A stretch of DNA of 34,213 nucleotides from Chiloscyllium plagiosum (lineage: Eukaryota), in the NCBI RefSeq assembly GCF_004010195.1, contig NW_025214443.1:1-34213 (forward strand). The letters are read 5' to 3'. Below are positions 1,099 through 34,213 of this stretch, one piece after another (positions within the stretch are counted from its first letter, which is position 1; every line of letters begins with the position of its first letter). The translations under genes and the position numbers were made by a program. The notes under the pieces are model-generated. The model saw nothing but the letters and a program-made list of their open reading frames with translations. It did not search any database and was not told the origin of the DNA.

Positions 1099-2002
1099 NN
1101 NNNNNNNNNNNNNNNNNNNNNNNNNNNNNNNNNNNNNNNNNNNNNNNNNNNNNNNNNNNNNNNNNNNNNNNNNNNNNNNNNNNNNNNNNNNNNNNNNNNN
1201 NNNNNNNNNNNNNNNNNNNNNNNNNNNNNNNNNNNNNNNNNNNNNNNNNNNNNNNNNNNNNNNNNNNNNNNNNNNNNNNNNNNNNNNNNNNNNNNNNNNN
1301 NNNNNNNNNNNNNNNNNNNNNNNNNNNNNNNNNNNNNNNNNNNNNNNNNNNNNNNNNNNNNNNNNNNNNNNNNNNNNNNNNNNNNNNNNNNNNNNNNNNN
1401 NNNNNNNNNNNNNNNNNNNNNNNNNNNNNNNNNNNNNNNNNNNNNNNNNNNNNNNNNNNNNNNNNNNNNNNNNNNNNNNNNNNNNNNNNNNNNNNNNNNN
1501 NNNNNNNNNNNNNNNNNNNNNNNNNNNNNNNNNNNNNNNNNNNNNNNNNNNNNNNNNNNNNNNNNNNNNNNNNNNNNNNNNNNNNNNNNNNNNNNNNNNN
1601 NNNNNNNNNNNNNNNNNNNNNNNNNNNNNNNNNNNNNNNNNNNNNNNNNNNNNNNNNNNNNNNNNNNNNNNNNNNNNNNNNNNNNNNNNNNNNNNNNNNN
1701 NNNNNNNNNNNNNNNNNNNNNNNNNNNNNNNNNNNNNNNNNNNNNNNNNNNNNNNNNNNNNNNNNNNNNNNNNNNNNNNNNNNNNNNNNNNNNNNNNNNN
1801 NNNNNNNNNNNNNNNNNNNNNNNNNNNNNNNNNNNNNNNNNNNNNNNNNNNNNNNNNNNNNNNNNNNNNNNNNNNNNNNNNNNNNNNNNNNNNNNNNNNN
1901 NNNNNNNNNNNNNNNNNNNNNNNNNNNNNNNNNNNNNNNNNNNNNNNNNNNNNNNNNNNNNNNNNNNNNNNNNNNNNNNNNNNNNNNNNNNNNNNNNNNN
2001 NN
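1099..2002. other. Assembly gap (other N-runs at 3344-3555, 12453-12962, 25041-25154, 29870-30279)
   Basis: N runs seen directly; the long X-containing ORFs in the track are artefacts of these. Confidence 1.
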
Positions 2003-3968
2003 ACCTGGAGAATTGTGTACAGGGTTGGCGAGACTCTACCTGGAATATTTTGTACAGGGTTGGTGAGACTGCACCTGGAGAATTGTGTACAGGGTTGGTG
2101 AGACGGCCCGTGGAGTATTGTGTACAGGGTTGGTGAGATTGCAACTGGAGTATTGTGTACAGGGTTGGTAAGACTGTACCTGGAGTATTGTGTACAGGGT
2201 TGGTGAGACTGTACCTGGAGTATTGTGTACATGGTTGGTGAGACTGCACCTGGAATATTGTGTGCAGGGTTGATGAGACTGCACCTGGAATATTGTGTAC
2301 AGTTTTGGTGAGGCTTTACCTGGAGTATTACGTACAGGGGTTGGTGAGACTGTATCTGGAGTATTATGTACAGGTTTGGTGAGACCGTACCTGGAATATT
2401 GTGTACAGGGTTGGTGAGACGGCACCTGGAGAATTGTGTACAGTGTTGGTGAGTCTTTTCCTGGAGTATTATGTACAGAGTTGGTGAGACTGTTCCGCCA
2501 ATATTGTGTACAGGGTTGGTGATACTGTACCTGGAGTATTGTGTACAGGGTTGGTGAGGCTGTACCTGGAGTATTGTGTACAGGGTTGGTCAGACTGCAC
2601 CTGGAGTATTGTCTACAGGGTTGGCGAGACTGTACCTGGATTATTGTGTACAAGGTTGCCGAGACAGTACCTGGTGTATTGTGTACAGGGTTAGTGAGAC
2701 TGTACCTGGAGTGTTGTGTGCAGGGTTGGCGAGACTGTACCTGGAGTATTGTGTACAGGATTCGTGAGACTGTACCTGGAATATTGTGTACAGTTTTGGT
2801 GAGGCTGTACCTGGAGTATTATGTACAGGGGTTGGTGAGACTGTATCTGGAGTATTGTGTACAGGTTTGGTGAGACCGTACCTGGAGTATTGTGTACAGT
2901 GTTGGTGCGTCTGTTCCTGGAGTATTATGTACAGGGTTGGTGAGACTGTTCCGCCAATATTGTGTACAGGGTTGGTGATACTGTACCTGGAGTGTTGTGT
3001 ACAGGGTTGCTGAGACTGTACCTGGAGTATTGTGTACAGGGTTGGTGAGGCTGTACCTGGAGTATTGTGTCCAGGGTTGGTCAGACTGCACCTGGAGTAT
3101 TGTCTACAGGGTTGGCGAGACTGTACCTGGAGTATTGTGTGTAGGGTTGGCGAGACTGTACCTGGAGTATTGTGTACAGGATTGGTGAGACTGCACCTGG
3201 AGTATTTTGTACAGGGTTGGTGAGACTGTACCTGGAGTATGTGTACAGGGTTGGTGAGACTGTCCCTGGAGTATTTGTACTGCATGGGTGAGACTCTACC
3301 TGGATTCTTGTGTACAGGGTTGGTGAGACTGTACCTGGAGTATNNNNNNNNNNNNNNNNNNNNNNNNNNNNNNNNNNNNNNNNNNNNNNNNNNNNNNNNN
3401 NNNNNNNNNNNNNNNNNNNNNNNNNNNNNNNNNNNNNNNNNNNNNNNNNNNNNNNNNNNNNNNNNNNNNNNNNNNNNNNNNNNNNNNNNNNNNNNNNNNN
3501 NNNNNNNNNNNNNNNNNNNNNNNNNNNNNNNNNNNNNNNNNNNNNNNNNNNNNNNGGCGAGACTGTACCTGGAGTATTGTGTGCAGGGTTGGTGAGACTG
3601 TACCTGGAGTATTGTGTACAGGGTTGGTGAGACTGTACCTGGAGTATGTGTACAGGGTTGGTGAGACTGTCCCTGGAGTATTTGTACTGCATGGGTGAGA
3701 CTCTACCTGGATTCTTGTGTACAGGGTTGGTGAGACTGTACCTGGAGTATTGTGTAGAGGGTTAGTCAGACTGTACCTGGATTATTGTGTACAGGGTTGG
3801 TGAGACTGTATCTGGAGTATTGTGTGCAGGTTTGGTGAGACTGTACCTGGATTATTGTGTACAGGGTTGGTGAGAATGTACCTGGAGCATGTGTACAGGG
3901 TTGGGGAGACTGTTCCTGGAGTATTTTGTACTGGTTTGGTGAGACTGTACCTGGAGTATTGTATACAG
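2003..3968 (+). repeat. 35-bp minisatellite (gggttggtgagactgtacctggagtattgtgtaca)n derived from CR1 ORF2, interrupted by a gap
   Basis: 35-bp period (e.g. 2022, 2057). The unit translates as LVRLYLEYCVQ, matching the CR1 motif LVRPHLEYCVQFW. Confidence 0.95.
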
Positions 3969-4280: not shown

Positions 4281-4528
4281 ATTCAGGGGCATGGCAATCT
4301 CTTGGCAAGCAAGTTTAGGGAGAATCCCCAGGTATTCAACAAGTGTGTCAAGTGGAACAGAATACCCAGGGAATAGGTAGGAGTCATTAGTGACTCGCCA
4401 AGTTGTTTCTTAATCAACTTTAGTGGTAGGAGACAGAGGGGGGTGGTAGAAGCCTGTTGGTGTGACTGGAGGCCGGTGTCTAATGTTGCACCATAGGGAT
4501 CAATGTTGTGTCCCTTATTATTTGTGAT

Positions 4529-4704
4529 TTGGAGATGCCAGTATTGGACTGGGGTGGACAAAGTTAAAAATCACACAACACCAGATGTATTCCGAGGCAC
4601 AAGCTTTCAATCCTCACAACTACCTGATGAAGAAGCAGCGCTTCGAAAGCTCGTGCCGCGGAATAAACCCGTTGGGCTATAACCCAGTGTTGTGTGATCC
4701 ATAA
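4529..4704 (+). mobile_element. Short non-autonomous element with inverted ends and hammerhead core (family B), 16-bp TSD
   Basis: ccttattatttgtgat is duplicated at 4513-4528 and 4705-4720. The element has inverted ends atcacacaacac...gtgttgtgtgat. Confidence 0.85.
4620..4656 (+). ncRNA. Minimal type I hammerhead ribozyme motif
   Basis: tac-CTGATGA-a-GAAGC-agc-GCTTC-GAAA-gCTC-gtg: conserved core boxes, 5-bp stem II, palindromic AGCU stem III, NUH triplet CUC and a short stem I. Confidence 0.65.
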
Positions 4705-5599
4705 CCTTATTATTTGTGATATTCATAAATGGTGATCTGTGAAAATAGGCGAGGGGTGGGGAGAGTGTGATAACCAAGTTTGTGTTTGATACAACGATTG
4801 ACCAGGTGGTTTGCAGTGAGGAGGAAGGTCTTATGTTACAGGAAGATACAGATGGACAGATCAGTAGCAGATGGAATGCAACCCTGATAAATATGAGGTG
4901 ATGCACTTTGGAAGAAGGAAGCACACAGCGGAGTACTCAGTGAATGGCAGCACACGAGGGAGCTCAGAAGGAGCCTGAATGTGACGGGACAGGTTAATCC
5001 ACAAGTTCAAAAAACAAAAGTAGTATAAGCATAGCCTTTATTCATCGATGCACAGATTATAAGTGCTATGCGGAACTTTGGTTAGGCCAAGATAGAATAC
5101 TGTGTGTAATTCTGGGAACCACATTACAGGAAGGATGTGATTGCACTGGACGGGGTGCAGATGAGATTCACCAGGATGTTCCCTGGGATGGAGCATATCA
5201 GCTATGGAGGGAGGCTGGATAAGTTCGGGTTGTTTAGTTTGGAGCAGAGAAGGCTGAGGGGGATGTGATTCAGAAGGAAACGATTATGAGTGACATGGAC
5301 AGGGTGGATAGACAGCAGCTGTTCATTTTAGTCAGAGGGAGAACAAGGGGGAGCACATTCTTAAAGTGAAGTGTTTGAGATTTAGAGGGGACTTGAGGAT
5401 CGTTTTTTACCGAGAGGGTTTTGAGGTCTGGTATGTACGATCGGAGAGGGAGTTGTCACGGGTAACCTCAGAGCTGTTACAAAGTACTTGGACGACCTCT
5501 TGAAGTGTCATCACATTCCTTGCCCGTGGGACTAATGTAGACCGTGCTGTTTTTCTGACGGTGCAGAGTCTATGCTTCTATGAGTACATGGTTGTGCAA

Positions 5600-7060
5600 G
5601 GTCAATCATTGAAAAGCTTAAGACAGAAATCGATGAGTTTCAGAACACTCTATATGCACAAGGGTAATAAATGTGAACTTGTAATAGCTTCATAAAGTAC
5701 GTCAATGGCAAAATTAAGGGAAAAATACATGCAGGTTATTTGCAGTCTATATCCAGAGAATGGAGAATGGAGAAGAGGGAAATGGCAGAACTATGCAGCA
5801 AATATTTCAGTAATATCCTTACAGAAGAAAACAAAACATTAAAACAATCTTCCTTGTAATATGAGGAAAGTTGAATCTGGTGAGAGAGAAAAAGGGAATA
5901 GAATACAATAACCAAATGAACGTTATGGAGATAGTACTTTAACTGAAAGCAGTGGGCTGAGAAAAAAACAACAGAGATTTATCAAATGGGAATCATATTT
6001 GAGAAACTGACTTTCAGCAAAATATGGAGAAGCAATCAATGCAATACGATTGGATTTTCAGAAAGAGTTTTGATCAAGCCCCAAGCCTACTATGAAAATT
6101 TGAATCGTATGGGACTGGGGCTAACAGAAGGGCATGGTTTTACAATGGGAGAGCTAACAGGAAACAGTGAGTAGGAATAAATCAATGTTTTTTTGAGAGC
6201 AGAGGACTCGGGGGTATAGCAGGATGCAGTGCCCTAGCTATTTCAAATACACACCAAACTTTTGTCAGAGGGAATCAAATGCAATATTTCCAATCCTGCT
6301 TGCTGATGGCATTAATTGATGTCAGATTGTGAGTGGGTGAGGAGGATGTAAAAAAAAGCTCCAAGGTGACTGAGGCAAGTGGAGTGTCTGTGCAAATGAA
6401 GAACAATGTGGGTAGATGTGACGTTGTGCTCTTTGATGGGAAAAAGAGAAGGGCAGCCTACCATTTGAAAAGGTTGAAAAATGTTACTCTATAAAGGGAC
6501 TTAAGCTTCTTTTCGTTTCATTCTTCACCGACCTCCGCCGTCCATACAGGGCAGTGAGTTCTGAAACCAGAAAATACTGGGAATGACATTGGGACACTTA
6601 CCAGTGTACATAGACTCATAGTTGAGTACCTTTAATATTGTAAAGGATCTGGATCTCCCTGTATACTAGTCACTGAAAGTAATTTTTGCAGGAACAGAAA
6701 GCAGTTAGAAAGGTAAATGATGTGTTGACCTTCATTTCAGGGGGATCTGAGTCCAGGTAAGGGTGTCTTACTGCAGCTGGACAGGGCCTTGGTGAGACCC
6801 CCATCTCGAACATGTTGCAGTATTGTGTGCAGTTTTGGTCTCCTTACCTGATAAAGGACAAACCTGACATTGAGGGAATGCAGCAAAGGATGACCAGACT
6901 GATCTCTGGGATGACAGGCTTGTTGTGGGAGCAGGGTTTGAGGCGACTGGGCCTTTATTCCATGGACTTTAGGAAAATGAGTGGAGATCTCAATGAAATA
7001 TATAAACTCTGACAGGGCGAGACAGACTAGAAGCAGGGATGATAATTTTGGAGCCATTAC
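5600..7060 (+). mobile_element. Old, deleted CR1 LINE ORF2 fragments
   Basis: EMAELCSKYF..I.TEE (~5780), DFQK.F-like (~6053) and LQYCVQFWSPYLIKD..IEGMQQRMTRLI.GM (ORF 6812-7012). Confidence 0.85.
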
Positions 7061-7112
7061 AGAGACCATTGAAGAGTTTATCACATGTCTGTGCGTCTGG
7101 AGTCACTTTTAG

Positions 7113-7317
7113 AGCTGAAAATGTGTTGCTGGAAAAGCGCAGCAGGTCAGGCAGCATCCAAGGAACAGGAGAATCGACGTTTCGGGCATAAGCCCTTCTT
7201 CAGGAATGATTCCGAAACGTCGATTCTCCTGTTCCTTGGATGTTGCCTGACCTGCTGCGCTTTTCCAGCAACACATTTTCAGCTCTGATCTCCAGCATCT
7301 GCAGTCCTCACTTTCTC
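7113..7317. mobile_element. Fold-back (hairpin) element with hammerhead core (family A), 16-bp TSD
   Basis: 75-bp inverted arms at 7111-7185 and 7212-7286 with one mismatch. ctggagtcacttttag is duplicated at 7097-7112 and 7318-7333. Confidence 0.9.
7172..7207 (-). ncRNA. Minimal type I hammerhead ribozyme motif
   Basis: Minus strand reads attc-CTGAAGA-a-GGGC-ttat-GCCC-GAAA-c-GTC-gatt: canonical core, stem II, palindromic ACGU stem III and GUC cleavage triplet. Confidence 0.7.
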
Positions 7318-7646
7318 CTGGAGTCACTTTTAGGCCAGATCAGGAAACCACAGGAGATTCACTTCCTGAAAGTACATTAGGGAAGCAAACTGCTGTTTTC
7401 AATCAACATTGGCTTTAGGGTAACTATTACTAGTACCAGATTTTAAATCTCGATATTTTATTAATGTTTTCAACCTACACCAGCTGCCAGAGCTTTAACC
7501 TGGTCTGGATTAGTAATCTCCATATTTCCACAACAGCACCATCTCTACAAGGGGACCTATCTGAAACCACACTGCACAGGTTATTTCTGTGCTGCTTGAC
7601 AGTTCTGTCAAAAATAACTCCCACCAATTTGACTATCGTGATTTGT

Positions 7647-7972
7647 GGGCGGCACGGTGGCACAGTGGTTAGCACTGCTGCCTCGCAGCGCCAGAGACCC
7701 GGGTTCAATTCCCGACTCAGGCGACTGACTGTGTGGAGTTTGCACGTTCTCCCCGTGTCTGCGTGGGTTTCCTCCGGGTGCTCCGGTTTCCTCCCACAGT
7801 CCAAAGATGTGCAGGTTAGGTGAATTGGCCATACTAAATTGCCCATAGTGTTAGGTAAGGGGTAAATGTAGGGGTATGGGTGGGTTTCGCTTCGGCGGGT
7901 CGGTGTGGACTTGTTGGGCCGAAGGGCCTGTTTCCACACTGTAATCTAATCTAATCTAATCTAATCTAATCT
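7647..7972 (+). mobile_element. HE1-type V-SINE, full length, (ATCTA)n tail
   Basis: tRNA-like head with A box tggcacagtgg and B box ggttcaattcc, V-domain, CR1-like 3' end gggccgaagggcctgtttccacactgt, and (taatc)n tail. Confidence 0.95.
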
Positions 7973-11959: not shown

Positions 11960-12073
11960 ATTGCCTGATCTCTATAAAGAATTCGCCTCTGTGGTTGAAG
12001 TTTACTCAGAAAGAACAGGGGGAGAAGGACAAGAAGATATAATTTGTAAGATATGGGATCTGCTCAGTCTCTA
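11960..12073 (+). pseudogene. Aspartic protease N-terminal half
   Basis: gat atg gga tct gct cag tct cta = DMGSAQSL, a degenerate DTG(S/A)xQS active site. Confidence 0.7.
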
Positions 12074-12087
12074 AAAATTGAGAAGTT

Positions 12088-12145
12088 GGGGCACTGGAAA
12101 AGCAAAACAGATCAGGCAGCATTCGAAGAGCAGGACAATCGACAT
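12088..12145. mobile_element. Fragment of family A hammerhead/fold-back element at the PR/INT deletion junction
   Basis: ctggaaaagca.aacagatcaggcagcattcgaagagcaggacaatcgaca aligns to 7129-7180. Confidence 0.75.
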
Positions 12146-13716
12146 ATCAGGCAGGTGTACCTAGGTGTACGGAAAACTCAGGTTAAGGTACATAAGCATT
12201 TCTATTGGTCTGGAATGCACAAGGACGTGGTTATTTTTTGTTGTACATGTCATACATGCCAAATGGTAGGTACGTCACAGGCAGTAATAAAACCAGCACC
12301 TTTGTTGGCAATTCCTATATTCAAAGAACCTTTCATGTGGGTTATGATTAATTGTGTAGCTTCCCTTTCTAAAATAAAAGTGGAAACCAATATTTGCTGA
12401 TGATAATGGATGTGTCTCCCAGATTTCCGGAGGCAATTCCATTATGGAGTGCNNNNNNNNNNNNNNNNNNNNNNNNNNNNNNNNNNNNNNNNNNNNNNNN
12501 NNNNNNNNNNNNNNNNNNNNNNNNNNNNNNNNNNNNNNNNNNNNNNNNNNNNNNNNNNNNNNNNNNNNNNNNNNNNNNNNNNNNNNNNNNNNNNNNNNNN
12601 NNNNNNNNNNNNNNNNNNNNNNNNNNNNNNNNNNNNNNNNNNNNNNNNNNNNNNNNNNNNNNNNNNNNNNNNNNNNNNNNNNNNNNNNNNNNNNNNNNNN
12701 NNNNNNNNNNNNNNNNNNNNNNNNNNNNNNNNNNNNNNNNNNNNNNNNNNNNNNNNNNNNNNNNNNNNNNNNNNNNNNNNNNNNNNNNNNNNNNNNNNNN
12801 NNNNNNNNNNNNNNNNNNNNNNNNNNNNNNNNNNNNNNNNNNNNNNNNNNNNNNNNNNNNNNNNNNNNNNNNNNNNNNNNNNNNNNNNNNNNNNNNNNNN
12901 NNNNNNNNNNNNNNNNNNNNNNNNNNNNNNNNNNNNNNNNNNNNNNNNNNNNNNNNNNNNNNTAAATTGCTTGCCATCGGAGATGCCCCAAATAAATCTA
13001 CTCAGTTTACTTCCTTTGAGATAATATTCGTACATGAAGTGAGAGGTCCTTGAAATAAATTAAATATAAATTGACAGGACCGAAGTCAGAGATCTCACAC
13101 TTGGATTATGTATGTGAGTTGAAGGAGAGATTATATGGAGTAGGTGAGTTATGTAAACAGCACCTGAAAAGGACACAACATAGAGTGAAGCAGGTGGCAG
13201 ATAAAAACTCTGAAACTTTGACGATTTCCCACTTCTGCCTGACCCTCTGCCTGTTCAGGTTTTTTTCTGCACCGTTACATCAAACAGGGTGTCAGTTAAC
13301 TGAACATCCACTCCTTGGTCTTTTTCTTTAACTTTTCCTTCCTGCTGTAACTTATGGGATCATGTTACTACACAATCTGGAAAATTTCCTGGGTATTTTT
13401 CTTTTAATTCCCCAGTTCCCTAGTCTTCCTTTGACTTCTCCACCACAGGGGATACCTCTCCCACTTTGTATCCTGTTAAATGGTTCCCAAGAACAAACTG
13501 CATTCCTGGAACTGACACTCTGTCACGCATTCTCACCGTTACTTCCCCAATCTTGATACGGGAATGACGTATTAATATTGCTACCAGTAGTAGGAAATCT
13601 GGTCAAAGCCAGTTTTAGTAGTCTCTTTCAAATTAAAAAAACATGTTGAGTCAGTTAAACTATCTCGTAAAGATGCTGGATATAACAAAAACGTTACCGA
13701 GTATTTCATATGAATG
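12146..13716 (+). pseudogene. Integrase (H2C2 finger, core partly in gap, GPY/F-like C-terminus)
   Basis: LGVRKT...KHFYW.GM.KDV..FC.TCHTCQ.VG; PFMWV.I.CV; MD...RFPEAIPL; STQFTSFEIIF.HEVRGP; from 13560 GNDVLILLP...KASFS. Confidence 0.9.
13225..13560 (-). pseudogene. Inverted, displaced protease C-terminal half and linker of the same element type
   Basis: Minus strand reads IGEVTVRMRDRVSVPGMQFVLGNHLTG...KYPGNFPDCVVT*S, matching the ILGNDL and F..C.VTR motifs. Confidence 0.75.
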
Positions 13717-13724
13717 AATAATGC

Positions 13725-14890
13725 ATTTAAGATTCAGGAACAGAGTTGTGGCCAGATGAACAAATTGTGCAGATTATCTGTATGATGCAGTGATCTTTAG
13801 CAAGGGATTGAAAGCTCACATGTTACAGTTGCCAGAGCATGTTGAACGATTACAAGAAGCAAACTTGGTAATAAAGTTAAAGAAAACAGAATTCGCGAAG
13901 GCAGAGGGGACGTTCTTGGAACATTACATTGGACATGGAAGGTTGACCCCATGGAACACAAAGACGAAGGGCTTTGAGGAATTTCCACAACCATCCTCGA
14001 AGAAAGAGGTGCTTCGATTTTGGGGACTGAGTGGATTCTATCGGAAGTTTGTTGCAAACTTCAGCAGCGTATTGGCACCACTGATGGGTTTATTAAAGAA
14101 GGAAACAGAATTTACGGGCGGCATGGTGGCACAGCAGTTAGCACTGTTGCCTCACAGCGCCAGAGACCTGGGTTCAATTCCCGCCTCAGGCGATTGTGTG
14201 GAGTTTGCACGTTCTCCCCGTGTCTGCGTGGGTGTGCTCCGGTTTCCTCCCACAGTCCAAAAATGTGCAGGTTAGGTGAATTGGCCATGCAAAATTGCCC
14301 GTAGTGTTAGGTAAGGGGTAAATGTATGGGTTTGGGTGGGTTGCGCTTCGGCGGGTCGGTGTGGACTTGTTGGGCCGAAGGGCCTGTTTCCACATTGTAA
14401 TGTAATCTAATTGTGTTGGACAGAACAATGCCAGGAGGCATTTGAGAATTTTAAAGCAGGATTAATCACCGCACCAGTTTTATCTGCACCAAATATTTTG
14501 AAACCCTTTGAACCCTTTGAAAATTGTGTTTGATGCTAGGGGTATAGGTGTCGGCGATGTATTGATACAGTATGATGATGGTGGAATTGAATAGCCAATT
14601 GGCTACTTGTCGAAAAAACTCAATATTCACCAGAAAAAAAATGCAAAATCTCCATTATTGAAAAAGAATGATTCGTACTGGCCTGGCAATATTTTAATGT
14701 TTATATGACAAACAAATTGTCGGAGATGGTTGTGGACAACAACAATCCTCTCGCATTTTCTGGAATATTTAAAGACCAGAATATGAGACTATTTCATTGG
14801 AGTCTTATCTTACCGACTTTAAACTTACAAAATGTATATATGCTGTGGATCCTGAATATGTGATAACAGATGTGTTATCGAGGATTTAAA
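13725..14890 (+). pseudogene. Reverse transcriptase (C-terminal half) and RNase H, split by a SINE
   Basis: NCADYLYDAVIFS (degenerate YLDD), ANLVIKLKKTEFA, KKEVLRFWGLSGFYRKFVANFS..APL; after the SINE WTEQCQEAF, DA..IGVG.VL.Q and PIGYLSKKL. Confidence 0.9.
14116..14410 (+). mobile_element. HE1-type V-SINE inserted in the Gypsy RT/RH connection
   Basis: Near-identical to 7647-7972; the host reading (KKETEF | WTEQC) resumes after it. Confidence 0.95.
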
Positions 14891-15849: not shown

Positions 15850-16925
15850 CATGCAGTTGGTCCATATCCTTCTAGTCCTTTCCAATCCACATATTTATCC
15901 AAATGCTTTTGAAATGTTGTTAATGCACACATCCCCTCAACCACATCTGCTGTCAGCTCATCCACGTATCAACCCTCTGTGTAAAGAAGTGACCCCTCAG
16001 GTTCCCTTTTATCCCTTCCCCTCTAACCTTGAACTGATCCCCTCTCGTCCTCGATTCTCTAAACCTTGGAAAAAGACTGAGAGCATTTACCCTATCTATA
16101 AACCCTCACGATCGTATACAGCTCTATAAGGTCCCCCCCTCAAACTCCTACACTCTAAAGAAAAGGTCCTAGCTTGTCCAACCTCTCCCTATAACTCAGA
16201 CCATTGAGTCCTGGCAACGTCTTTGTAAATATCGTCTGCACTCTTTCTCATTTCATAACATCCTCCTTAAAACAACGTGACAAAAACTGAACACAATACT
16301 CCAAGTGCGGCCTTACCAAAGTCCTGTGTAACTGCAACATAAATTTCCAACATCTATACTCAATGTCCTGCCTGATGAAGGCCAGTGTGCCAAAAGCCTT
16401 CTTCACTGCCCTGTCCACATGTGACTCAACTCTCAGACAACCATGCACCTGAACGCCAAGATCTCTCTGCCCATTACATCCCTTAAGGCTCTCCCATTCA
16501 CTATGAAACTCCTACCTTAATTTGAGTTTCCAAAACTTCCTCACTGATCACGCTACCACTTATTTTAGTGTCACCTGCAAACTTACTAATCATGCCTTGT
16601 AAATTCTCAACCCAATCATGGATAACAAACAGCTATGGACCCAGCCTCCAGTCTGACAAGCATCCGCCCACTAAACCCTCTGCTTCCCAGCATCAAGCCA
16701 ACTGTGTATCCAATGGGCCAGTTCCCCCAGCATTCCACGTGATGGAACCTTCCAGAGCAGCCTGCCGTGTGGAACCTTATCAAAGGCCTTACTGAAATCC
16801 ATTGAGACTGCGTCTACCGCTCTGCCCTCGTCAACCTTCTTGGTCACTACATCAAAGAACTCTAACAAATTTGGGAAACATGATCTCCCACTCACAAGTC
16901 TATGCTGACCGGTCTGAATCAAACC
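15850..16925 (-). mobile_element. CR1 LINE RT-to-3' fragment
   Basis: ORFs give GRSCFPNLLEFF..VTKKVDEGRAVDAV.MDFSKAFDKVPHGRL and RTLVRPHLEYCVQF. Confidence 0.95.
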
Positions 16926-17804
16926 CTGTGTACGTAATGGGTGCAGTCAATGGTATGCTGTCCTTCATTGTAAGATGATTCGAGTACATAAGTAAAGCCA
17001 TTTTCCTGCTGTTGTAGACTTGCTGAGAGAGTATTTGGGGCACTCTCTACCGATTTGATCTCCCTTGTAAGGAATGATCTCCTTACCCCAGACATAGGTG
17101 ATGGTAACATGAGGATAGAGTGAAGACATTGTGGTTTAGTCTGTGGAGCTGTGTGAGACGAAGAAATGGCAATGCTAAAGCATGAGGTGTGGCAGCGATC
17201 ACTTATTTCCAAAAGAGACATTGATACGGTGAGAAATTCCATACCTTACCCAGGATTAATTGATCTGATTTATTGTCACATGTACCTCAGTACAGGGAAA
17301 CACTTTATTTATGAGCAGTTAAGGCAGATCAATATCAACATGGCCAGGCAGATCATAGGGTGGAAATAGACTTGGACAGAGTAAGGCACACAGTTACACT
17401 GCACAGGACGTGCACTAGACATGATCAACGTGAAAAAGATCAGCATGATTTGAACTTAGAGAGTCCATTCATCAGTCTAATGTGGCTTTGCTAATTGTTT
17501 ATGTGCCTTAATTAACTTTCCCGTACTGAACGCCATGTTCAGTAGCCACAATACCTTCCTTCTGAAACACGTAGCCATTCCCACCAGCTTCTGCTCTCCA
17601 TAGAGAATACCAGGCTGGCTTCTTGGAGATGGAAGATGCCTTATTGAGACTTCACACAAGACATATGGCTTCAATCCTCACAGTGAGAAAACCACGTTAA
17701 AGTCCCACATGTGTATCATAAGCAATGGAGCCAGGAGGAACAACGCGGAACTGTCTGTCTGTGCAGCCTCTGCTCCACTTATTCATCATGTTAGAGCATC
17801 AATT

Positions 17805-17935
17805 AGGAGACAGTGAGGACTGCCCATGCTGGAGATCAGAGTAGAGAGTGGATTGCTGGAAAAACACAGCAGGTCAGGCAGCATCCGAGGAGCAGGAGAA
17901 TCGACGTTATAGGCATTAGCCATTCATCAGGAATT
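17805..17935 (-). mobile_element. Family A element, single-arm copy with decayed hammerhead
   Basis: Reverse complement of 7212-7319 plus core CTGATGA-a-tggc-taat-gcct-ataa-cGTC. Confidence 0.85.
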
Positions 17936-17969
17936 AGCATCAATTACCTCATTCTGTCCCTGTGTAAGT

Positions 17970-21605: not shown

Positions 21606-22113
21606 TGTCACTGTTTCCTTTTCTAGTCCCACTCCTCCACTGCTCACAACAAATGTTAAATATAACCAGGTTGGTGATGTGGCCGATGATATCGGTCTCA
21701 GACTGGGTCAGGGTCAGTTTTAGGAACAAGTCAGGCTAGTTTCTTTAATCTGCTCAAATAGCACGTTTATGATCCAGAGCAATGCTACTCAAACAATGAT
21801 GGAAAGATGAATGGCAAAGTGTTTGGGTATTGCAAATATATAATCAATATTTCTCTGTTTAAAACACTGACACACACAACGATAAACAAAATCTCTGCAA
21901 TTTTAACTTGAAAGAACTTTGTCTAAATCTTAGTGTAACTCACGACAAAATAAAAACTGAGAGATTGCCAAAAATGTTATTCTGCTTCTGAAGATATTCT
22001 ACACACAGCTGCTAGCAATGGGATTTCATCCTGGAACAGTTGGATTTGGCTGAATTCCCTGAGCATTAGGCAGTGAGGAGATTCCAATGGATTCTGATCA
22101 GTGATCGCCCAAA

Positions 22114-22449
22114 GAGTAGCACGGTGGCTCAATGGTTAGCACCGCTGTCTCATAGCATCAGGGGCCCGGGTTTGATTCTAAACTTGGGCGACTGTCTGTG
22201 TGGAGTTTGTACATTCTCCCCTTGTCTGTGTGAGCTTCTAATGGGTGTTCCAATTTCCTCCCACAGTCCAAATCTGTGCAGGTTAGGTGGATTGGCCATG
22301 CTAAATGGTCCATAGTGTTCAGGGATTTCTAGGTTAGGTGCATTCGTCAGGGGTAAATATAGGGGAACGGGTTGGGAAGGTTACTCTTTGGAAGGTTGGT
22401 ATGGAGTTATTGGGTTGAAGGGCCTGTTTCCACACTGCAGGGATTCTAT
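22114..22449 (+). mobile_element. Older HE1-type V-SINE subfamily copy
   Basis: Diverged tRNA head (tggctcaatgg), V-domain and CR1-type tail gggcctgtttccacactg.agggattctat. Confidence 0.9.
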
Positions 22450-22989
22450 AAAAATAAGAATGGTAACGATGACTGTAGGGTTTTTCTTTAGCTCGCTCTC
22501 ATTGCTGTGATGAGGAACAATGAAGGAGAGAGAGTGCAATAGGCCATTCCTTCTCAGGAAGATTATATTTTCTGCCTCTCTGAGTTGAATCATACAGTAA
22601 TGTCATCCTTTCCCAAACTGGACCATGTGAGGTCCCTTGTACATTGTCCAAACTATGTTTCCATCACATTCCCTGTTCCATGTTGCTGCATCATTGCTGC
22701 TGTCATACACAGGGATGCCTTGATTCCGGCCTTGATTTTCACAAAGACCCTGAGCTTTGGTTGCCTTGTGTTGTTAGGGGGATGAGGGACTGATTGTAGA
22801 CACAGTCAATGGGAGGAGAGGCTGGACAGTAATCAGCAGAAAATGGTCTCGGTCGCTTTGAAGATATGTTTATACGTTGCTGCGGCATTAAAAACTAAAA
22901 TGTTTAATGTATTCAGTATACCTGTGTTAAAATGAATGCATTTTGTAACAAATACAGAAATTGCTGGAAAAGCTCGGCAGGTCTGTCAG

Positions 22990-23215
22990 CATCCAGATGC
23001 CTTTTACATGCTGTAGTTCTACCAGCCTCCATCACTTCCTCTGGCAGGTCATTCCAGACGTACACCACCCTCTGCGTGAAAAGGTGCTCCTTAGGCCTCT
23101 TCAAAACCTTGCCCCTCTCACTTTTAACCAATGCCCTCTAGGTTTGGACACCCCTAACCTGAGGAAAAACCCTGACGACTCACCCTATCCATGACCATTC
23201 TGATTTTATAAACCG
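22990..23215 (-). mobile_element. CR1 ORF2 C-terminal fragment
   Basis: FTQRVVYVWNDLPEEVMEAG....KRHLD. Confidence 0.9.
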
Positions 23216-23941: not shown

Positions 23942-24190
23942 TAGAACATAGAACATAGAACATAGAAGAATACAGCGCAGTACAGGCCCTTGGGCCCTCG
24001 ATGTTGCGCCGATCCAAGCCCACCTAAACTACACTAACCCACTATCCTCCATATACCTATCCAATGCCCTCTTAAATGCCCATAAAGAGGGAGAGTCCAC
24101 CACTGTTACTGGCAGGGCATTCCATGAACTAACGACTCACTGAGTGAAGAACCTACCCCTAACACCAGTCCTATATCTACCCCCCCTTAA
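23942..24190 (-). mobile_element. Young CR1 3' end with (TTCTATG)n tail
   Basis: (agaacat)3 tail and FFTQ*VVSSWNALP on the minus strand. Confidence 0.9.
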
Positions 24191-24279
24191 TGGTGGCCCA
24201 GGGACAAGCACCAACGCAGACTCACCTCAGATCCCACGAGACTCTACCTTTTGTAGCAGCCTGCCGTAAGATGTGAAGC

Positions 24280-24540
24280 GATCCAGAAGAGATTACTGAC
24301 GCAAAGGTGACTACACTTAAATGAAAGTGCTGGGAATGGCAACCGTGATGGAACTCGCAGCCAAGGAAGGTCAACACCTCACAAAATGGTGGCTGAGAGT
24401 TCACAAAATGGTGGCCCAGGGACAAGCACCAACGCAGACACAAAACTGCCACTGCTGTGGAAACACATGTCAGGCAGCAGCAAATTGCTGCTGGAAAGAA
24501 GCTGTGTGCAGAAACTGCAGCATTAAAAAAGAATATATTA
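24280..24540 (+). pseudogene. Gypsy-type gag fragment (double zinc-knuckle remnant)
   Basis: MATVMELAAKE...CHCCG......NC..KEAVCRNC. Confidence 0.55.
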
Positions 24541-24549
24541 AGCGAGAAG

Positions 24550-24916
24550 AAGTTTGAGAGGCAACTTAATTGAGATATATAAGATAATCAAAGGGTTAGA
24601 CAGGGTGGACAGTGATAGCCTTTTTCCTTGGACGGTGATGGCTGGCCTGAGGGGACTTAGCTTTATATTGAGGGGTGATAGGTATAGGACAGATGTCAGA
24701 GGTAGTTTCTTCACTCAGAATAGTAGGCGCATGGAACGCACTGCCTGCAACAGTAGTTGAGTCGCCAACTTTAAGGGCATTTAAACGGTCATTGGATAGT
24801 CATATGGGCGAAAATAGAATAGTGTCGTTTAGAAGGGCTTCAGATTGGTTCGACAGGTTGGCGCAACATCAAGGGCTGAAGGGCCTCAACTGCGCTGTAA
24901 TCTTCTATGTTCTATG
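24550..24916 (+). mobile_element. CR1 3' fragment with tail
   Basis: LRGNLIEIYKIIKGLDRVD..LFP, WNALPATVVE and ttctatgttctatg tail. Confidence 0.95.
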
Positions 24917-24917
24917 T

Positions 24918-24995
24918 CGTAAAAGCACAGCAGGTCAGGCAGCATCCAAGGAGCAGGGGAATCGATGCTCCGAGCATGAGCTCTTCATCAGGAAC
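24918..24995 (-). mobile_element. Family A element, partial single-arm copy
   Basis: Minus strand reads CTGATGA-a-GAGC-tcat-GCTC-ggag-cATC, and the arm matches 7133-7207. Confidence 0.8.
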
Positions 24996-27672: not shown

Positions 27673-28389
27673 GCTCGGGGTAAACTGTGCAGGGCAGCTC
27701 CTAACAGAGAAAGCTCAACCGTGTGCCCATTGACCTTTTAAAGATGGCACCAGTGCCTGGGATCACGGAATATCCAGGGGCACCCGGGCGATGGTGAGCA
27801 CCTCCAGTCATGATGGATGGGAGAATTGGGCTGGTATTGAATGAAAGGGACACCATGGGGTGGGGTGGGTGGTTAATGAGGTGAGTTCGATACGATAGCA
27901 CTAGGAAACTAGCTCAGCCTCGTGTGGACAATCGCTCTGTCACACTCAAGGAAAGTCAAACAAAAATAAAGTATTGTTAGAATCTGCCCAATGAGTCATA
28001 GATTCTATTGAAACTAATTCCAGTTACAAAGATGTAGAACAAATGCTCATCTGATCTCACACCAATATCCCTTTTTCCCATCTTTCCTGGGAAGACTGGC
28101 TCATGTTACAGGATGTTATCGAAGTGTCTACATTTCAGCATTCTGAAACCTGGGAACACATCCTTCCATGACACTGTCTCTCAGTCTCCCCATCTCTGTC
28201 TATTTCCCAAACCCCTCCCATGTGGTGGTATTTAAACTGATTTCCCCTGCCATCTCTCTCTGGCAGTGATGTTCACACCCACAGCACCCCCTTGTCAGGG
28301 CAACAATGGAGATAGGAGCTGTAAATGGGTGGGAGCTACACAACCTGTCACTCCCAGCATGGGCTGCAAGTTTCCCCACGCTGGGCAGG

Positions 28390-29869
28390 GATCTAACACA
28401 GTGTTACTGAACAATGCACTGGGCTGGGGTACACAGCTCTACATGCTGGGAGGGTAACAGCTCCTGGTTTACAGATCAATGCACTGGGTCGTGTACACAG
28501 TCCTACATGCTGGGAGGGTAACTGCTCCTGGTTTACAGATCAATGCACTGGGGTGGGCGATACATCCCGATGTGTTGGGAGGGTAACTGCTCCTGGTTTA
28601 CAGATCAATGCACTGGGGTGGGGTACACAGTCCTACATGCTGGGAGGGTAACTGCTCCTAGGTTACAGATCAATGCACTGGGGTAGTGTACACAGTCCTA
28701 TATACTGGGAGGGTAACTGCTCCTGGTTTACAGATCAATGCACTGGGTTGGGCTATACAGCCCTACGTGGTGGGAGGGTGACTGCTCCTGGTTTACAGAT
28801 CAATGCACTGGGTTGGGCGATACAGCCCTACGTGTTGGGAGGGTAACTGCTCCTGGTTTACAGATCAATGCACTGGGGTGGTGTACACAGTCCTACATGC
28901 TCGGAGGATAACTGCTCCTAGGTTACAGATCAATGCACTGGGGTGGGGTACATAGTCCAACATGTTGGGAGGGTAACTGCTCCTGGTTTGCAAATGAATT
29001 CATGGGTGATCACTGCACAGGTCGCTGTGCTGGTCAGACTATCTGGTTGAGGTTTGTAGATAATGCAATGATGTGGTTTGTGTAGCCCCTTATGCTGGAT
29101 GGATATTTGTTTCAGGTTCACACATTAGTGCCCTGCTGTGGTCTGCACAGCTCCCCGTGCTGGACAGATATCGAGTCGGTGTTTATAGATCAATGCACTG
29201 GGGTGGTGTACACAGTCCTACATGCTGGAAGGATAACTGCTCCTAGGTTACAGATCAATGCACTGGGGTAGTGTACACAGTCCTACATACTGGGAGGGTA
29301 ACTGTTCCTGGTTTACAGATCAATGCATTGGGTTGGGCTATACAGCCCTACGTGTTGGGAGGGTAACTGCTCCTGGTTTACAGATCAATGCACTGGGGTG
29401 GGGTACACAGTCCAACATGCTAGGAGCGTAACTGCTCCTGGTTTACAGATCAATGCACTGGGGTGGTGTACACAGTCCTACATGCTCGGAGGGTAACTGC
29501 TCCTAGGTTGCAGATCAATGCACTGGGGTGGGGTACATAGTCCAACATGTTGGGAGGGTAACTGCTCCTGGTTTACAAATGAATTCATGGGTGATCACTG
29601 CACAGGTCGCTGTGCTGGTCAGACTATCTGGTTGAGGTTTATAGATAATGCAATGATGTGGTTTGTGTAGCCCCTTATGCTGGATGGATATTTGTTTCAG
29701 GTTCACATATTAGTGCCCTCCTGTGGTCTCCACAGCTCCTCTTGCTGGACAGATATCGAGTCGGTGTTTATAGATCAATACACTGCTGTGGTCTGCACAG
29801 CTCCCCATGCTGCACAGATATCTAGTCCGGGGTTATAGATCAATGCACTGCTGTGGTCTGCACAGCTCT
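28390..29869. repeat. 65-bp satellite with two monomer types and a 585-bp higher-order repeat
   Basis: gggtaactgctcc at 28516, 28581, 28646 and onward; identical ORFs at 28930 and 29515 (offset 585 = 9x65). Confidence 0.95.
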
Positions 29870-30420: not shown

Positions 30421-30614
30421 TTAAGGTGGTTCTGTGAGGTGGATTGAGAATGTGGTATATCTCACCCTTTGAGCTGATCTGGCAATGCCTTTAGTTCCCA
30501 TTCCTGTGATTGGACCCTCCGTCTCTCACCCCATTAATGTTACAGTGTGCCCAGGCACAGTACATCATGTTGGTGGGGTGGGTAGGGGGGAAAGGTGATG
30601 GACAGGTCAAGGAG

Positions 30615-30909
30615 TTCCCCGGAATGTTCTGTCCCCAACATTCTATAACCGACATTCCCTGGAACGTTCTGTCCCCAACATTCTATAACTGTCATTCCCC
30701 AGAACGTTCTGTCCCTGACTTTCTATAACTGACATTCCCCGGAACATTCCATCCCCAACATTCTATAACTGTCATTCCCCGGAACGTTCTGTCCCTGACA
30801 TTCTATAACTGCCATTCCCCGGAACGTTCTGTCCCCAACTTTCTATAACTGTTATTCCCCGGAACATTCCATCCCCAACATTCTATAACTGTCATTCCCC
30901 GGAACATTC
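30615..30909. repeat. 40-bp minisatellite (~7 copies)
   Basis: ggaacgttctgtccccaacattctataactgtcattcccc repeats at 30621, 30661 ... 30901. Confidence 0.95.
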
Positions 30910-33305
30910 AAAGAAACAGAGTGCGCGTTGTAATTCAATGAGTTGAGCCTCTCTCATTCAGTCAATGTGTCGATATTAACGCTTTCAATCAATCAAACAA
31001 ACTGCATTCATTCAATCATTGAATCAAACTTCAATCATTAATTCAATGAATCAGATGTTAATCGCTGATTCTTTGTAACAAACATGCATTCATTGAATGA
31101 AACCGAGTGTACGTAGTATTTCATTGATTTGACCTTGTGTCATTCAGTCAATGACAGAAGCTTAACGCTTTCAATCAATGAAACAAACTGCATTCATTCA
31201 ATCATTGAATCAAACTTCAAGCATTGATTAGATGTTAATCATTGAATCTCTGAATCAAACGTAACCCGTTTCTTAGTGCGTCCAACTGCATTAATGTGTA
31301 GAGCTTTTATCATTCAGTCAATGTCTCGAGCTTTCATTCAATGAAACAAACTGCATTCACACATTGGGTCAAACTTCCATCATTGATTCAGTGAATCAGA
31401 CGTTAATCGCTGAATCTTTGATACAAGCTTAACTCAATTGTTTAGCGAATCCAACTGCATTCATTCATACAATCAAACAAACAAACAACTTTGTAACGTG
31501 GTATTTCAATGATTTGACCTTCTCTCATAAAGTCAATGTCTCGAGCTTAACGCTTTCAATCAATGAAACAAACTGCATTCATTCAATCATTGAATCAAAC
31601 TTCAATCATTATTTCAATTACTCAAACGTTATTCATTGATTCAATGAAACAAACTTAACTCATTTCTTTAGTGAATCCAACTGCAATCATTCATACTGCA
31701 TTCGTTCATTCAAAGAAACAGAGTGCGCGTTGTAATTCAATGAGTTGAGCCTCTCTCATTCAGTCAATGTGTCGATATTAACGCTTTCAATCAAACAAAC
31801 TGCATTCATTCAATCATTGAATCAAACTTCAAGCATTGATTAGATGTTAATCATTGAATCTCTGAATCAAACGTAACCCATTTCTTAGTGCGTCCACCTG
31901 CATTAATGTGTAGAGCTTTTATCATTCAGTCAATGTCTCGAGCTTTCATTCAATGAAACAAACTGCATTCACACATTGGGTCAAACTTCAATCATTGATT
32001 CAGTGAAACAGACGTTAATCGCTGAATCTTTGATACAAACTTAACTCAATTGTTTAGCGAATGCAACTGCATTCATTCATACAGTCAAACAAACTGCATG
32101 CATTCATTCAATGATTTGACCTTCTCTCATAAAGTCAATGTCTCGAGCTTAACGCTTTCAATCAATGAAACAAACTGCATTCATTCAATCATTGAATCAA
32201 ACTTCAATCATTATTTCAATTAATCAAACGTTATTCATTGATTCAATGAAACAAACTTAACTCATTTCTTTAGTGAATCCAACTGCATTCATTCGTACTG
32301 TCAAACAAGCTGCATTCGTTCATTCAATGAAACAGAGTGCACGTGGTAAATCAATGAGTTGAGCCTCTCTCATTCAGTCAATGTCTCGGTCTTAACGCTT
32401 TCTTTCAATGAAACAAACGGCATTCATTCAATCATTGAATTAAACTTCAATCATTAATTCAATGAATCAGATGTTAATTGTTGATTCTCTGAATCAAACG
32501 TAACCCATTTCTTAGTGCGTCCAACTGCATTAATTCACACAATGAAACAAACTGCATGCCTTCGTTCAATGAAACAGAGTGCAAGTGCTAATCCAATGCT
32601 GAGAGCATTTCCCATTCATTCTGTGAAACAAACTGCAAAGATTAATTCAACGAAACAGACTGCACGTGTTAATTCAATGACAAGAGCTTCTCTCACTTAT
32701 TCAAATTTAAGCTTCACGCTTTCCTTCATTGAAACAAACTGCATGCACACAGTAATTGAATCAAAATTCTATCATTCATGCAATGAAACAAACTGCACAC
32801 ATTCATTCAATGAAACCTTACTGCACGTGTTTATTCAATGAGTGGAGCTCCTCTCATTCAGTCAATGTCTCGAGTTTTAATTCAGTGAAACAAACTGCAT
32901 TCATTCAAACATTGTGTCAAACTTCAATCATTGAATTAACTTCAATCATTGAATTAAACTTCAATCATTAATTCAATGAAGCAAATGTTGATCGTTGATT
33001 CTCTGAAACAATGCAGTTTTCCTGCATCCAACTGCATTGATTCATGCAATGTAACAAACGGAATGCGTTCGTTCAATGAAACAGAGTCCCATGCGTAGAG
33101 CTTTTCCCATTCATTCTGTGAAACAAACTTCAAAGATTAATTCAATGAAACAGACTGCACATGTTAATTCAAAATCTGGAGCTTTACGCTCACATTCATT
33201 GAAACAAACTGCATGTATTCAGTCATTGACTTAAAATTAAATCATTCATTCAATGAAAACTTACTGCAACTGTTTATTCAATGAGTAGACCTTCTCTCAT
33301 TCATT
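30910..33305. repeat. Complex AT-rich satellite (~170-240 bp monomers, ~600-bp higher-order duplication)
   Basis: Recurrent tcaatgaaacaaactgcattcattcaatcattgaatcaaac; block ~31190-31700 is repeated at ~31800-32300. Confidence 0.9.
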
Positions 33306-34213
33306 CGGGTGTGAGGGGGTTAGGATGACGGTGATGGAATCAGCGTGAGGGGGTCAGGGTGAAGGTGATGGAATGAGTGTGAGGGGGTCAGTATTACAGT
33401 GATAGAGTGAGTGTGAGGGGGTCAATGTGAACGTGATGGAGTGAGTGTGAGGGGGTGAGTGTGACCAAGATGGAGTGAATATGTGTCGATTAGTGTGAGG
33501 GTGATTGAGTGAGTGTGAGTGGGTCAGTGTGAGGATGATGGAGTAGTGTGAGGGGGAAAGGATGACATTGATTGGAGTGAGTGTGAGGGGCTAAGTGTGA
33601 CGGTGATGGAGTGAGTGTGAGGGGTTCAGGTAGACGGTGATGGAGGAGTGTGAGAGGGTCAGTGTGATAGTGATGGAGTGAGTGTGACGGGGTCAGTGTG
33701 ATCATGATGTGTGAGTGTGAGGGGGTCAGTGTGACTGTGATGGAGTGAGTGTGAGTGGCTCAATGTGAGGATGATGGAATAGTGTGAGGGGGAAAGGATG
33801 ACGGTGATAGAGTGAGTGTGAGTGGTCAGGGTGACAGTGATGGAGTGAGTGTGAGGGGGTCATTGTGTGGTGATGGTTTCAATGTGATGGGGTCAGTGTG
33901 ACGGTGATGGAGGGAATGTGTGTCGGCCAGTGTGAGGGTGATGGAGTGAGTGTGAGTGGGTCAGTGTGAGGTTGATGGTTTGAGTGCGAGGGGGTCAGGA
34001 TGACAGTGATGAAGTGAGTGTGAGAGGTCAGATTGACAGTGATGGAGTGAGTGTGAGAGCATCAGGTTGAAGGTGATGGAGTGAGTGTGAGGGGTTCAGG
34101 GTGACGGTGATGGAGTGAGTGTGAGGGGGTCAGTGTGACGGTGATGGAGTGAGTGTGAGTGGGTCAGTGTGAGGGAACGGAGTGAGTGTGAGGTGGTTCA
34201 GGATGATGGTGAT
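33306..34213. repeat. 34-bp G/T-skewed minisatellite, runs off the window end
   Basis: (tggagtgagtgtgagggggtcagtgtgacggtga)n with period 34 (34111, 34145). Confidence 0.95.

Follow-up and report, generated by a model that had tools for sequence, protein, structure and literature searches.

A fold-back insertion with a minimal hammerhead motif in Chiloscyllium plagiosum as a probable end stub of a Penelope-like element

The fold-back element at 7097-7333 is very probably one insertion of the end stub of an endonuclease-bearing Penelope-like element (PLE), the last ~100 nt of which were copied twice. It lies in a 34,213-nucleotide stretch of Chiloscyllium plagiosum DNA, here referred to as the window. 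Its arms are two copies of one end module in head-to-head orientation and are not terminal repeats. Four of five features of an EN+ PLE insertion were found: inverted copies, a one-sided tail, a hammerhead motif, and a fixed 3' end lacking poly(A) combined with a variable 5' extent and a target-site duplication (TSD) of variable length. The preliminary description had proposed a self-cleaving, RNA-mobilised mini-element of retrozyme or Penelope type. Its PLE-type minimal hammerhead and Penelope-like, RNA-based origin are upheld by the fit to the published consensus and by the published insertion layout. The self-cleaving mobile unit or retrozyme is not: in reads and contigs of relatives the family is mostly not folded back at this junction and continues upstream of the hammerhead, head-to-tail tandem hammerheads are absent, and in the folding model one half of the core is paired.

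An exact 16-bp TSD, CTGGAGTCACTTTTAG, occupies 7097-7112 and again 7318-7333, and sequence comparison placed an insert of 205 bp (7113-7317) between the two. The inverted arms measure 75 bp (7111-7185 and 7212-7286) and are identical at 74 of 75 positions, with the single mismatch at 7154/7243 and a hairpin loop of 26 nt; TSD, insert length, and arms all agree with what had first been described. The hairpin had a z-score of -19.6, and 0 of 200 shuffles were equally stable. As a control for the TSD, we compared 929 pairs of 40-nt zones spaced 220 nt apart, 927 of which shared at most 10 nt; the remaining two shared 17 and 31 nt, both corresponding to a 33-bp direct repeat at 24189/24407. At its edges the TSD overlaps the element by 2 nt per side (AG at 7111-7112, CT at 7318-7319), and since these bases can be assigned either to the TSD or to the element, the duplication amounts to 12-16 bp. 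The insert is asymmetric, with 31 nt (7287-7317) that lie only 3' of the right arm, without a counterpart beyond the left one. In related runs, three contig joints pass directly from one flank to the other (7092 to 7318, 7103 to 7326, and 7112 to 7353), indicating that the target is present once, as an empty site, in other copies of the host repeat. The target flanks (7061-7110 and 7334-7382) are part of a multi-copy repeat, with a summed contig depth of 1.5-2.7e5.

Because the sibling at 17805-17935 consists of a single unit of hammerhead, arm, and 31 nt, the locus amounts to two copies of such a unit joined together (Table 1). The forward copy retains GAAACGUC at 7214-7221 and has no CUGANGA. 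The T at 7243 is a change private to this copy, the family having C in 287 of 314 RNA reads. Junction bases 7210-7211 are foreign to both native copies, and native sequence departs from the window behind 7209.

Table 1. Coordinates of the fold-back insertion, its parts, and related copies in the window
Feature	Position	Strand	Remarks
Left TSD, 16 nt	7097..7112	+	final AG equally compatible with the inner end of the element
Right TSD	7318..7333	+	initial CT equally compatible with the outer end of the element
Reversed end-module copy	7111..7209	-	complete minimal hammerhead plus 65 nt downstream, without tail
Forward end-module copy (right hairpin arm)	7212..7286	+	5'-truncated inside hammerhead stem II
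Tail, 31-33 nt, on one copy only	7287..7319	+	terminates at the fixed 3' end of the family
Head-to-head junction	7203..7213	.	small palindrome GGAAT-G-ATTCC
Minimal type I hammerhead core	7176..7203	-	from sequence, descriptor scan, and published minimal-hammerhead consensus; motif only
Older sibling	17805..17935	-	single unfolded unit: decayed hammerhead, arm, and tail; ~87% identical
Sibling	24921..24994	-	decayed hammerhead and partial arm, truncated by another repeat
Sibling fragment	12094..12153	-	arm only, 80% identical
Sibling fragment, short	22961..22995	-	35 nt, 89%
Fold-back of a different sequence family, same layout	4513..4720	+	TSD 16 bp: 4513-4528 / 4705-4720

The four siblings were found by blastn of the 7097 element against the window. 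The copy at 17805-17935 carries the same 31-nt tail and its own 11-bp TSD (17795-17805 / 17936-17946). Both older core-bearing siblings in the window have broken cores, and all three core-bearing copies, including the one at 7097, start 3-6 nt before C3 of the hammerhead. This common start counts against the PLE-stub reading; it is not explained by random truncation and fits either a short template RNA or a stop of the reverse transcriptase (RT) at the hammerhead. The fold-back at 4513-4720 showed no blastn similarity to the 7097 element and nevertheless has a one-sided tail of ~31 nt (4529-4559), inverted arms, and a minimal hammerhead at 4624 (+). It is older, with arms that are ~80% complementary, and its hammerhead looks intact. 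TSD lengths in the window were thus 16 and 11 bp for the 7097 family (two measured) and 16 bp for the 4513 family.

The minus strand from 7203 to 7176 reads CUGAAGA-A-GGGC-UUAU-GCCC-GAAA-CGUC, exactly as the preliminary description had it. C3 falls at 7203, N7 at 7199, an extra A at 7196, GAAA at 7183-7180, and C17 at 7176, with a palindromic ACGU; the cut site is predicted from the sequence to lie between 7176 and 7175. Stem II has 4 bp (7195-7192/7187-7184), and stem I has only 2 bp, followed by U-U. A short, mismatched stem I had been ascribed to this copy in particular; shortness and mismatch are indeed seen, but the U-U mismatch is not private to it, recurring at 17805-17935 and 24921-24994. 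A custom descriptor matched 4 shuffled versions of the element out of 5000 and gave 0.01 matches per shuffled window (200 shuffles), compared with two real matches in the window. None of the Rfam hammerhead models matched the element at E <= 5, and none of six other matches reached the gathering score; weak mir-3127 and mir-680 matches to the element were far below the Rfam cut-offs. The motif fits the consensus of PLE minimal hammerheads, which in the accessible part of PMC4209133 includes an extra base before stem II and a palindromic stem III, both present here, the former as an unpaired base. Position N7 (7199, 18-30%) was the sole core variant among the 40 variants listed from the family, at an 88% cut-off that drops decayed copies.

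According to folding models, the fold-back would bury the catalytic core. In minus-strand read-through transcripts, the 75-bp duplex paired the whole GAAACGUC half of the core with a probability of at least 0.997. A hammerhead-compatible fold had a modelled probability of 3.7e-7 in transcripts that start at 7225 or further up and include 14 nt of upstream arm, and of 0.15-0.22 in those starting at 7215 or below. These models make self-cleavage by this copy appear unlikely, and the plus strand carries no CUGANGA. When dimers were modelled, pairing via the overlapping GUCGAU (-6.1) was favoured over ACGU (-1.7) and stem I was not formed; folding models of dimers do not decide hammerhead activity. 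Dimer cleavage of such minimal variants has reportedly been observed by Lunse et al. (2017). Since both copies run past the predicted cut site, the template was uncut there. No pile-up of RNA ends was seen among the ends listed, which came from one poly(A) single-cell run and constitute a weak test. In vitro, monomers of minimal hammerheads remained uncleaved and dimers were weakly cleaved (PMC4209133, accessible part), and in the part of PMC11167929 available, the hammerhead of an Anolis PLE depended on the protein, insertion in vitro did not require it, and its cut site showed no RNA ends.

To place this copy within its family, we compared 4 of 24 listed sequencing runs with 6900-7560 at 88% likeness. 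These runs may be from other species; they appear to derive from relatives or from other copies, and among the listed pieces none spans the locus. Joints, loose ends, and variants are reported from the part listed, beyond which there were a further 607, 1280, and 82 of them, respectively; fold-backs with other centres lie outside the counts, and differences in runs X1 and X11 were partly uncounted, so that the numbers of differences there are lower bounds. In two DNA-type runs, 100,998 and 109,191 contigs matched, 15,478 and 13,731 of them at >=99%, which points to a family with a very large number of copies, some of them young; summed depth on the arm was ~1.7e7. Loose ends clustered at 7317-7321, most of them at 7319, and continued into mixed, AT-rich flanks without poly(A), with low agreement (~0.35) at 7318-7321 in four runs. 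This clustering before mixed AT-rich sequence defines a fixed 3' end. Behind 7209, a common 30-nt sequence was found in 216 RNA reads (agreement 0.71) and 196 X1 contigs (0.42), so some family members, at a minimum, extend beyond the unit of hammerhead, arm, and tail.

Depth fell from 5.6 million at 7199 to 29,212 at 7208 in X1, a ratio of ~0.5% in both DNA-type runs, and from 749 to 31 reads in RNA run X21; we read this ratio as the share of the family that crosses this centre. Reads that do cross it often differ (9 of 31 at 7208, 6 of 46 behind 7210), and one 89-nt contig across the centre had 2 gaps in addition to 7 differences. In other copies the arm is followed directly by the tail, as seen from the opposite-strand joints 7128/7289 and 7130/7283. 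RNA reads ran ~2:1 in the hammerhead sense, if the usual strand rule holds, with 0-6 reads on the flanks and the locus itself unspanned, and 98% of matching RNA reads continued into unlike sequence. Variants at 7161, 7236, and 7279 were common in organism A (~22-24% of depth at the first and last of these positions) and below 1% in organism B; they mark a lineage-specific subfamily. Three viral matches and one metagenome match from collection scans were dismissed as chance, as none extends beyond 19-21 nt.

A coding link to a PLE was also sought. The 36-40-aa open frame over arm and tail had 0 matches among 11 candidates (longer proteins only), and its weak match to a repetitive 505-aa protein was rejected as a relative. 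Pfam, run on 11 of the 47 listed open reading frames (ORFs) of the window, returned GIY-YIG for 0 of the 11, an integrase zinc-binding match, and a sub-threshold RVT_1, with nothing PLE-specific among them. In the window, matches to a short motif taken from the continuation upstream did not exceed chance. Because these searches found no link to an RT or GIY-YIG frame and only 30 nt of the continuation were seen, the PLE identity rests on layout and motif.

The window also contains other repeats. Integrase_H2C2 (E 1.8e-10) and the sub-threshold RVT_1 fall in remnants of LTR retrotransposons at 12050-12400 and 13760-14275, the first of which contains the sibling fragment 12094-12153. A SINE-like repeat with a tRNA-like head, in which ARAGORN detected no tRNA, occurs at 7641-7955, 948-1098, 14110-14411, and 22108-22319; its copies presumably resemble the shark V-SINE/HE1. 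Minisatellites with periods of 35, 65, 40/27, and 34 bp fill 1942-3836, 28377-29846, 30575-33268, and 33284-34206, respectively, and the 35-bp unit resembles, in reverse, a dispersed repeat at 16272-16320. A large nested inverted structure at 23953-24917 has the arm pairs 23953-24010/24860-24917, 24016-24126/24730-24840, and 24140-24191/24667-24718; it ends in short TTCTATG-type repeats, adjoins the truncated sibling at 24921, and houses the 33-bp direct repeat at 24189/24407.

The layout of the locus closely follows published EN+ PLE insertions (all statements on publications refer to the parts of them that were available). In rotifer examples, the pLTR is inverted, one of the two opposed copies may bear a 31-bp tail, TSDs measure 8-10 bp, and palindromes mark the head-to-head junctions (Arkhipova et al. 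2013, PMC3846280); PLE insertions more generally often have a 5'-truncated copy in inverted orientation, and one of their ends has a tail of 30-40 bp (Craig et al. 2021, PMC8557442). Head-to-head end copies, a 31-nt tail on one copy, a variable TSD, and a junction palindrome are shared with these; unlike them, the locus has no body between the ends, and its TSD is 12-16 bp compared to 8-10 bp in the rotifer examples. The hammerhead resembles the minimal hammerheads of metazoan PLEs in CUGANGA-H, a G-C-closed stem II, GAAA-C-G-U-C, and a palindromic stem III (Cervera and De la Pena 2014, PMC4209133), its 4-bp stem II and 2-bp stem I lying at the short end of these. Motifs in that source are mostly solo, with opposite-strand pairs 100-700 bp apart also reported; unlike in those pairs, the opposite-strand partner here keeps only one half of the core and buries the other copy. 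The 56-motif alignment, in the part of PMC4209133 available, includes no cartilaginous fish. As in Poseidon of Anolis carolinensis (Frangieh et al. 2024, PMC11167929), two end points that delimit a tail lie ~100 nt beyond the hammerhead, and targets are AT-rich; in Poseidon, however, the ORF starts in stem II, whereas the arm/tail frame here has no convincing protein relative. Metazoan non-LTR retrozymes are likewise short, non-coding, PLE-derived, and endowed with a type I hammerhead (PMC7229834; 10.64898/2026.07.22.740005), but they form head-to-tail tandems with a canonical type I hammerhead per unit and circular RNAs (Cervera and De la Pena 2020, PMC7229834; Li et al. 2026), in contrast to the locus described here, where two units stand head to head and the single complete motif is minimal and buried. 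One cartilaginous fish was sampled in 10.64898/2026.07.22.740005, and what was available of PMC8969392 and PMC6155905 is in general agreement only. In the literature searched, which left most subscription journals outside, no publication on shark PLE hammerheads or such fold-back stubs was found.

As to how the fold-back arose, on balance we lean towards a two-ended priming route. A PLE protein would make a staggered cut, and each target strand would then prime its own cDNA. At the outer start site the primer would be the bottom strand, whose cDNA, stopping at 7212, would become the forward copy with the tail; at the inner start site it would be the top strand, whose cDNA, stopping at 7209, would become the reversed copy without the tail. 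Both primers would end in AG and meet CU in the template, although these 2-nt matches could be due to chance. Both cDNAs would have halted at the hammerhead, and fold-back and microhomology over a few bases would have allowed their ends to be joined. The hammerhead would then be a passenger of the terminal repeat, buried and probably inactive in this copy. L1 twin priming resembles such a route, except that here both cDNAs copy the same 75 nt. An in vitro precedent comes from a PLE protein that cuts and extends both target strands, with RT starting at two sites that bound the tail (PMC11167929, accessible part).

Alternatively, one cDNA might have folded back and primed itself, or switched template, to produce the inversion. 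We regard this as possible but rather unlikely: a palindrome sits at the junction, and self-priming, on an antisense template, has been proposed for rotifer PLEs (Arkhipova et al., PMC3846280), but the reversed copy holds hammerhead sequence (7186-7209) that is absent from the forward copy, so that plain copy-back does not produce it, and it ends exactly without the tail, as expected from two RT start sites. A related question is what served as the template. It is unlikely, though worth considering, that this was a short non-autonomous RNA of ~130 nt, reaching from the front edge of the hammerhead to the tail, a SINE-like parasite of PLEs for which the fold-back was made at insertion. The shared start of the three core-bearing copies, the very high copy number, and the copy at 17805, which matches this unit exactly and is flanked by a TSD of its own, all speak for it. 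The common upstream sequence in DNA contigs and RNA reads argues against it, as do the RNA reads that run on into unlike sequence and, among the ends listed, the lack of an RNA-end pile-up; moreover, an RT stop at the structured hammerhead yields an identical boundary.

The two remaining explanations treat the fold-back as a mobile unit in its own right. That the 205-bp element is itself an RNA-mobilised, self-cleaving mini-element or retrozyme is very doubtful. Core and stem II are intact, the copy is young, its TSD is long, and some reads and contigs of relatives cross a similar centre; set against this are the sequestered core, with the model probability given above, the rarity and variability of this centre across the family, and the cleavage behaviour of minimal hammerheads in vitro. 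The tandem arrangement of retrozymes was not found, as the locus has one complete motif and the two in the window belong to different families. The least probable origin, to which we give almost no weight, is a MITE derived from a DNA transposon, with the 75-bp arms as its terminal inverted repeats and a hammerhead-like loop arisen by chance. Such a transposon would be short and non-coding and have long inverted arms and many copies, as is the case here, but the 31-nt one-sided tail means that the arms are not terminal, TSDs span 11-16 bp, most copies are one-armed, and the motif is rare in shuffles. The preliminary description had likewise decided against a DNA-type MITE.

The probable PLE end stub has a layout already described for this class, and a single locus adds little to published knowledge. 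Its value for annotation is that such stubs resemble MITEs or miRNA hairpins but are retroelement ends. As a class, the stubs are suited to the study of PLE inversion and tail formation and of copy stops at the hammerhead. We consider it unlikely, yet of some consequence, that most stubs derive from a discrete ~130-nt non-coding RNA and that the fold-backs record two-strand cDNA priming of one cut by PLEs. If that were true, thousands of loci would provide an in vivo read-out of PLE integration, which was left open in vitro.
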